Assembly (NCBI RefSeq): GCF_003334405.1
Contig: NZ_QOWM01000001.1
Source: Escherichia coli
Lineage (GTDB): Bacteria; Pseudomonadota; Gammaproteobacteria; Enterobacterales; Enterobacteriaceae
DNA length: 64,000 nt
Direction: 5' to 3' (one strand)
The translations under genes were made by a program, and so were the position numbers. Below, one piece after another: positions 53,523 to 53,632 of the stretch (position 1 is the first letter of the stretch; every line of letters begins with the position of its first letter). The notes below the pieces were generated by a model. That model did no database searches and was not told the origin of the DNA. It saw only the letters and a program-made list of their open reading frames with translations.

Positions 53523-53613
53523 TAACGTGATGGGAAGCGCCTCGCTTCCCGTGTATGATTGAACCCGCATGGCTCCCGAAACATTGAGGGAAGCGTTGAG
53601 GGTTCATTTTTAT
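53523..53613 (+). ncRNA. sroE: Possible SroE-like small RNA / structured ispG 3' UTR
   Basis: Approx. 90-nt segment directly after the ispG stop with hairpin GGGAAGCG-cc-TCGCTTCCC and a second stem ending in ATTTTTAT. SroE is reported in the gcpE-hisS spacer (from memory). Confidence 0.35.
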
Positions 53614-53632
53614 ATTCAGAAAGAGAATAAAC

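Follow-up and report, generated by a model that had tools for sequence, protein, structure and literature searches.

The spacer between ispG and hisS in Escherichia coli raises the question of whether it encodes a small RNA in its own right, ends the transcript of the upstream gene, or serves the expression of the downstream one. The DNA analyzed here is a stretch of 64,000 nucleotides of E. coli contig NZ_QOWM01000001.1 (the window). Within it, the ispG coding sequence occupies 52404-53522 (+), according to the ORF list and the MG1655 annotation of ispG. The hisS coding sequence follows on the same strand at 53633-54907, with a GTG start that is supported by the ORF list, the MG1655 annotation, and its occurrence in nearly all of 80 species compared. 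The ispG frame closes with TAA at 53520-53522, followed by a second in-frame TAA. An earlier note, made from the sequence alone, had described a structured 110-nt spacer at 53523-53632 that ends at the GTG start of hisS, and both the ORF list and the sequence agree with these limits. The same note had suggested a 3'UTR-derived, SroE-like small RNA and/or a terminator with read-through into hisS, with an Rfam search as a check. Shortly upstream of the GTG, AGAGA at 53622-53626 (+) is the probable Shine-Dalgarno sequence of hisS, a function suggested by the AGAGAA block that is kept in the alignment.

The window matches E. coli at 100% identity, and this stretch is present in all 5,426 complete E. 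coli genomes, with a median of one copy per genome. Two mechanical ORFs run antisense over the junction (53362-53646 (-), 94 aa; 53504-53650 (-), 48 aa). They are most likely spurious, because the two TSS supplements searched by position (SMRT-Cappable-seq and Kim et al., 2012) show no antisense start in the junction interval.

Identity with SroE

The element in the spacer is SroE itself and not merely an SroE-like sequence. A whole-window Rfam scan placed family RF00371 (sroE) at 53522-53613 (+), covering model positions 1-92 of 92 with 116.6 bits (E 1.8e-28) against a gathering score of 51 bits, and a local scan returned RF00371 with an E-value of 1.4e-30. In MG1655 (NC_000913.3) the ncRNA gene sroE (b4761) spans 2640595..2640686, which corresponds base for base to 53522..53613 of the window. 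The 92-nt SroE sequence given by Mihailovic et al. (2018) is likewise identical to this interval (PMC6172242). Position, strand, length, sequence and two-hairpin structure are therefore all those of SroE at its own locus, between ispG (gcpE) and hisS and on the strand of both, and the link drawn in the earlier note turns out stronger than it was put. No feature is annotated in the ispG-hisS spacer by PGAP.

SroE begins on the final base of the ispG stop codon (53522) and its annotated 3' end is T53613, both ends being taken from the reference annotation. SroE is already known: it entered the catalogues in 2003 and is part of the reference genome annotation, and it was reportedly discovered in the 2003 RNomics screen of Vogel et al. 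It is described as an RNA of about 90 nt from an early sRNA screen, and SroE has been detected in RNA-seq (PMC12539622; PMC12266141). It has also been placed among sRNAs that arise by processing of longer transcripts (PMC8313858), which together with a 5' end on the ispG stop codon bears out the description of this RNA as 3'UTR-derived.

Five other gathering-level Rfam matches were found in the window, namely GlmY at 2959-3106 (+), naRNA4 (a REP-derived nucleoid-associated RNA) at 31778-31849 (+), the iscRS stability element at 32566-32675 (+), ryfA at 40050-40353 (-), and IS128 at 40485-40693 (-). All five are known E. coli features. The SroE locus has itself been labeled a REP element in one paper; this label was rejected, as the locus is single-copy (median of 1 per genome) and the window contains no further copy of the motif.

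Structure of the SroE RNA

SroE contains two hairpins followed by a U-tract, and this structure is present well beyond chance. For the complete 92-nt element the folding energy is -40.1 kcal/mol (z = -4.73), and none of 200 dinucleotide shuffles was as stable. Hairpin 1 has a core formed by GGGAAGCG at 53532-53539 and CGCTTCCC at 53543-53550 around a CCT loop. With its flanking pairs (53526-53557 (+)) it reaches -16.5 kcal/mol and z = -4.54, a stability equaled by 0 of 200 shuffles. The earlier note had placed a hairpin at 53533-53551; the hairpin is real, although these coordinates are one base too high.

Hairpin 2 is a terminator-like stem-loop at 53560-53606 (+), folding at -21.7 kcal/mol (z = -3.79; 0 of 200 shuffles equal). 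Its outer stem pairs TGAACCC at 53560-53566 with GGGTTCA at 53600-53606, giving 7 bp with 4 G-C pairs, and it contains the GAACCC...GGGTTC stem that had been read from the sequence, just as the ATTTTTAT reported to follow it is found at 53606-53613. The U-tract TTTTTAT (53607-53613 (+)), supported by the sequence and by the comparative position of the T-run, adjoins the stem with no gap. Hairpin 2 and TTTTTAT consequently have the anatomy of an intrinsic terminator, in which a GC-rich stem stands directly before a U-tract. A simple terminator scanner passed over hairpin 2, whose loop is longer than the scanner allows.

A hisS promoter within SroE

Published transcription start sites revealed that SroE also contains the hisS promoter, which the earlier note had not noticed and which changes how the conservation of SroE is read. 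In the SMRT-Cappable-seq data of Yan et al. (2018, Supplementary Data 2), the operon b2514|b2513|b2512 (hisS-yfgM-bamB) has its TSS at 2640641 (PMC6131387), which maps to G53567 (+) of the window, within SroE. Kim et al. (2012) filed a TSS at 2638663 (older coordinates) under 'sroE', with the upstream sequence ...GGGAAGCGCCTCGCTTCCCGTGTATGATTGAACCCG (PMC3415461), and this start, obtained by a different method, is the same nucleotide. A primary, 5'-triphosphate start at G53567 is hence recorded in two independent published datasets. Kim et al. (2012) also list a TSS of low read count inside ispG, at window position 53256 (+) and 377 nt upstream of the hisS GTG, which they assigned to hisS (PMC3415461); transcripts from there would include the whole SroE region and the terminator.

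The hexamers of this promoter have the arrangement TGGGAA-17-TATGAT, with sigma-70 spacing. The -10 element TATGAT (53554-53559 (+)) agrees with the consensus at 5 of 6 positions and ends 7 nt before the TSS, and the block GTATGAT is invariant in 22 of 22 Enterobacteriaceae. The -35-like element TGGGAA (53531-53536 (+)), 17 bp upstream of TATGAT, matches at 3 of 6 positions and is assigned on the strength of the measured TSS. A consensus promoter scan found no promoter in the spacer, TGGGAA-17-TATGAT falling below its 9-of-12 cut-off. Since the -35 is weak and the scanner was negative, the promoter call rests on the TSS data and on conservation.

Promoter and hairpins are interleaved. The -35 lies within the 5' arm of hairpin 1, and the remainder of that hairpin is, as DNA, promoter spacer. 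The -10 directly adjoins the 5' arm of hairpin 2, this arm being exactly the 7 bases between the -10 and the start, so that G53567 is one base past it. The promoter-derived mRNA has a 5'UTR of 66 nt (53567-53632 (+)), and because the 5' arm of hairpin 2 is absent from it, the terminator can form only in transcripts that enter from upstream and not in RNA started at G53567. Consistent with this, the segment 53567-53613 folds no better than shuffles (z = 0.02), leaving GGGUUCAUUUUUAU unpaired, and the longer leader 53567-53660 reaches only z = -0.60. RF00371 is filed in Rfam as 'Gene; sRNA', whereas its core here overlaps an experimentally mapped hisS promoter and 5'UTR. No description of this interleaved geometry at the ispG-hisS locus was found in the accessible literature.

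Read-through and the strength of the terminator

Transcripts from upstream do cross the spacer, as the earlier note had supposed when it spoke of a terminator with read-through into hisS. SMRT-Cappable-seq detected ispG-hisS-yfgM (TSS 2641981) and rodZ-ispG-hisS (TSS 2642925 and 2643004) transcripts, and its table holds no transcript class that ends between ispG and hisS (PMC6131387). The two Term-seq lists of Adams et al. (2021) that cover the region contain 3' ends inside ispG and inside hisS, and none at 26405xx or 26406xx (PMC7815308). Because of these read-through classes, and because neither SMRT-Cappable-seq nor Term-seq has an end at the SroE terminus, hairpin 2 would be at most a weak terminator in vivo. 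Alternatively, the missing 3' end could mean that the 3' terminus of SroE is made by processing and not by termination.

Two of the Term-seq ends lie within the hisS ORF at window positions 53774 and 53925 (+), about 141 and 292 nt past the GTG. Both appear in more than one list, and the end at 53925 has a very high score (PMC7815308). Such ends could come from premature termination or from processing inside hisS.

A probable composite junction

The reading that we consider quite probable is that SroE lies on a composite junction, in which a leaky ispG terminator and a superimposed hisS promoter share the same DNA and RNA started at the hisS promoter avoids the terminator. RNAs initiated at the rodZ and ispG promoters would extend past the ispG stop codon into the two hairpins, where hairpin 2 and its U-tract would act as a weak, leaky intrinsic terminator. 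A minority would end at about T53613, perhaps through termination rather than through trimming, and 5' processing at the ispG stop codon would leave the stable 92-nt SroE; the majority would continue into hisS-yfgM-bamB. The sigma-70 promoter of hisS would occupy the same sequence, with its -35 in the 5' arm of hairpin 1, its -10 before hairpin 2, and its start at G53567. RNA made from it would carry no 5' arm, would adopt no terminator fold, and would reach hisS unimpeded, and this escape may be the reason for the geometry. Given a weak terminator, SroE would be a minor yet stable product.

A possible trans-acting role

SroE could instead be a trans-acting, Hfq-associated regulatory sRNA derived from a 3'UTR, like CpxQ and SroC, with the junction architecture secondary. 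Its anatomy fits such processed sRNAs, with a 5' end at a stop codon, a terminator hairpin and a U-tail, and SroE was among the Hfq-associated sRNAs of nitrogen-starved E. coli (PMC12539622). However, its Hfq dependence was entered as N/A in the study of Mihailovic et al. (2018), where nine of ten predicted targets were unbound in vitro and the tenth, the ligB mRNA, was bound weakly (PMC6172242). Overexpression of SroE had no effect on biofilm, motility or fimbriae (PMC4606813), and its level showed no significant difference between nutrient conditions (PMC12266141). The U-tail has only 5 consecutive U residues. Moreover, RF00371 is confined to Enterobacteriaceae, whereas the ispG-hisS junction extends further. 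The search for a conserved single-stranded seed distinct from other elements gave no candidate: because the sole invariant unpaired block, GUGUAUGAUU, coincides with the hisS -10 region, no separable, independently conserved seed is left. Taken together, these data make a regulatory sRNA an unlikely account of the locus, and SroE may have no trans-acting role at all.

The comparison with established 3'UTR-derived sRNAs is instructive in the same respect. Like CpxQ (from cpxP), SroC (from gltIJKL), and RaiZ (from raiA), SroE is co-transcribed with the upstream ORF, has a processed 5' end near the stop codon, and has its 3' end at the hairpin and U-tract of the mRNA. Those three have validated targets and conserved seeds, whereas SroE has one weak in vitro interaction and no seed that can be separated from the -10. 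Unlike them, it also directly precedes a co-oriented essential gene that receives read-through.

Possible attenuation of hisS

The position of the element, always directly 5' of the essential hisS, also invites the idea of a cis-acting sensory leader or attenuator, either T-box-like or with a leader peptide, that answers the charging of tRNA-His. Barquist et al. (2013) speculated on a T-box-like hisS leader, and the region was scored as 'required' by TraDIS in Salmonella (PMC3632133); a hairpin with a U-tract does stand upstream of this aminoacyl-tRNA synthetase gene. A simple explanation of the TraDIS requirement is nonetheless that insertions disrupt the promoter or 5'UTR of a gene that is itself essential. 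Since its start at G53567 comes after hairpin 1 and after the 5' arm of hairpin 2, the primary hisS transcript contains no terminator that could be switched. Neither a T-box nor a His-leader model nor any other Rfam family matches the element, even at E <= 10.

Two further candidates for such a mechanism were considered and rejected. A second copy of GGGAAGCG begins at 53588 in E. coli, in addition to the one at 53532, and could pair with CGCTTCCC in place of the first copy, as in an antiterminator. This copy is not conserved, even within the species: another E. coli has GACGGAAGCG there, and Citrobacter has GGGTTAGCG. The E. coli concerned is SCPM-O-B-8794 (L002), in which a G-to-C polymorphism at window position 53588, in the inner stem of hairpin 2 (GAGGGAAGCG in the window against GACGGAAGCG), removes the second copy. 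The other candidate was a leader peptide from the ATG at 53569, but most genera lack this ATG and the small ORF has no run of His codons. With neither a family match nor a conserved His-rich leader ORF with alternative pairings, attenuation appears very improbable.

Systems in which leaders or attenuators control aminoacyl-tRNA synthetase genes, such as the T-box of Firmicutes and the pheST leader peptide of E. coli, likewise have a terminator-like hairpin directly upstream. The SroE locus differs from them in having no T-box match, no conserved leader ORF, and no conserved alternative pairing, and in that the transcript of hisS itself starts inside the terminator and so bypasses it.

Conservation in Enterobacteriaceae

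In a comparison of the hisS locus across 80 species, ispG was the immediate upstream neighbor without exception (80 of 80), at a distance of 13 to 411 nt. In the Orbaceae and in most Vibrionaceae this spacer is short and unstructured. RF00371 was also searched in 13 loci from Enterobacteriaceae and in 13 from other Enterobacterales families. All of the former matched, ten at or above the gathering score, one at 50.4 bits, and two interrupted by insertions; none of the latter did, even at E <= 1.

Among the Enterobacteriaceae spacers analyzed, the -10 TATGAT is found in every one (22/22), and 21 of the 22 have either TGGGAA-17-TATGAT or TTGGGA/TTGTGA with an 18-bp spacer. The exception carries an insertion in hairpin 1 and has an ATGACG-16 arrangement instead. 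The outer stem TGAACCC/GGGTTCA, followed by a T-run, is kept in most of the 22. In the alignment of these sequences 92.8% of cells are paired overall (96% in hairpin 1, which has 2 compensatory pairs, and 98% in the outer stem of hairpin 2), and double changes are seen in only 2 pairs. Such near-invariant stems leave little covariation within Enterobacteriaceae, too little to be informative, and the turnover of the apical helix of hairpin 2 across genera was used in its place. This apical part varies freely in sequence and length, from 17-20 nt in Enterobacter to about 50 nt in other genera, and the Enterobacter hairpin 2 is a compact terminator of the textbook kind. The hairpin nevertheless folds at z < -2 in 20 of 22 genera (median z -3.9), and since the fold is kept while the apical sequence turns over, the comparison argues for selection on a continuous RNA hairpin.

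A putative promoter in other Enterobacterales

Further comparison showed a different arrangement in Yersiniaceae, Pectobacteriaceae, Hafniaceae, Morganellaceae and Budviciaceae. Their first hairpin is different, GC-rich, and often has a T-run of its own. In 21 species of these families there is a near-consensus TTGAAx-17/18-TATAAT. The distance from the end of the TATAAT to the GTG is 31-40 nt in most of them, and larger where an insertion has lengthened the 5'UTR. In these families the TATAAT directly precedes CGGGTTCATTTTT and lies within hairpin 2 where hairpin 2 exists. Transcription initiated about 7 nt past it would begin where the 3' arm ends, and RNA born at such a promoter would again escape the hairpin. 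In Pantoea and Tatumella a stem and T-run occupy the same place with the arms CCTGT/ACAGG. Throughout, the T-run lies 24-32 nt before the GTG in nearly all Enterobacterales spacers that have a T-run preceded by a stem.

From this distribution we infer that an ispG terminator, a hisS promoter, and a GTG start preceded by a U-rich leader make up an old junction, and that the hisS promoter moved upstream of hairpin 2 in the lineage of Enterobacteriaceae. A bolder reading, to which we give even chances, holds that SroE is not a regulator but a stable by-product of the interleaved terminator and promoter, that both of these set the conservation captured by RF00371, and that the promoter was relocated between families. 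On this by-product reading, and with the same even chances for the two jointly, the promoter would lie inside hairpin 2 (TTGAAx-18-TATAAT) in the five families named above, and upstream of it in Enterobacteriaceae.

These sequences also bear on whether hairpin 1 is mainly a DNA palindrome, that is, an operator for a dimeric repressor between the hisS -35 and -10. The 8-3-8 inverted repeat GGGAAGCG-CCT-CGCTTCCC sits precisely where the mapped promoter has its -35 and spacer, and its arms are almost invariant in Enterobacteriaceae while its center varies. The sole double change in the stem body (G-C to U-A, in one genus) keeps palindrome and hairpin alike. The need to keep the -35 in the 5' arm and pairing in the 3' arm can, however, account for this invariance, and no protein is known to bind there, nor did the analysis identify one. 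Elsewhere in Enterobacterales, the corresponding hairpin is an unrelated GC-rich sequence with a T-run and lies outside the promoter, as would be expected of an ispG terminator. An operator at this site seems a very improbable explanation.

Significance of the junction

On the composite-junction reading, the closest likeness is to housekeeping operons of the rpsU-dnaG-rpoD type. That operon has a leaky intercistronic intrinsic terminator and an internal promoter. The ispG-hisS pair similarly combines partial termination with an internal promoter for the distal gene, yielding several overlapping transcript classes. It differs in that the hisS promoter is physically interleaved with the terminator, the start being one base past the 5' arm in Enterobacteriaceae and the predicted promoter lying within the hairpin in other Enterobacterales families.

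SroE is an orphan sRNA for which no function has been established after two decades, and it overlaps both a mapped promoter and a putative leaky terminator. Its conservation is probably due largely to these two duties, which would probably account for the 'essential' TraDIS call as well. The case is a warning not to take conserved and structured RNAs from intergenic regions for regulators as a matter of course. Furthermore, the promoter-inside-terminator geometry and its proposed relocation between families offer a testable example of a gene that is insulated from its upstream neighbor and yet partly fed by it. The analysis is of value mainly for explaining an orphan sRNA more economically, and it carries little weight as a discovery.

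Leader sequences and insertions in the spacer

In nearly all of the 80 species, the GTG start of hisS follows a conserved AGAGAA block and a T-run 24-32 nt upstream, even where hairpin 2 is missing. This arrangement suggests an independent role for the U-rich hisS leader, perhaps in the initiation of translation.

In several other species, repeat-like insertions interrupt the spacer. In Pseudocitrobacter an insertion of about 90 nt lies in the loop of hairpin 1 (locus L006, about 1830-1925). Klebsiella sp. BIGb0407 carries an insertion of about 125 nt in hairpin 2, with a weak V_AS5-like Rfam match and a second copy 3 kb away (locus L054, 1829-1952 and 5138-5261). In the spacer of Photorhabdus caribbeanensis (L048), the TATAAT box is split by an insertion with TATACCC...GGGTATA at its flanks. 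Lastly, three Yersinia species (L031, L032 and L076) have spacer insertions, one of which is palindromic and lies in the hisS 5'UTR.
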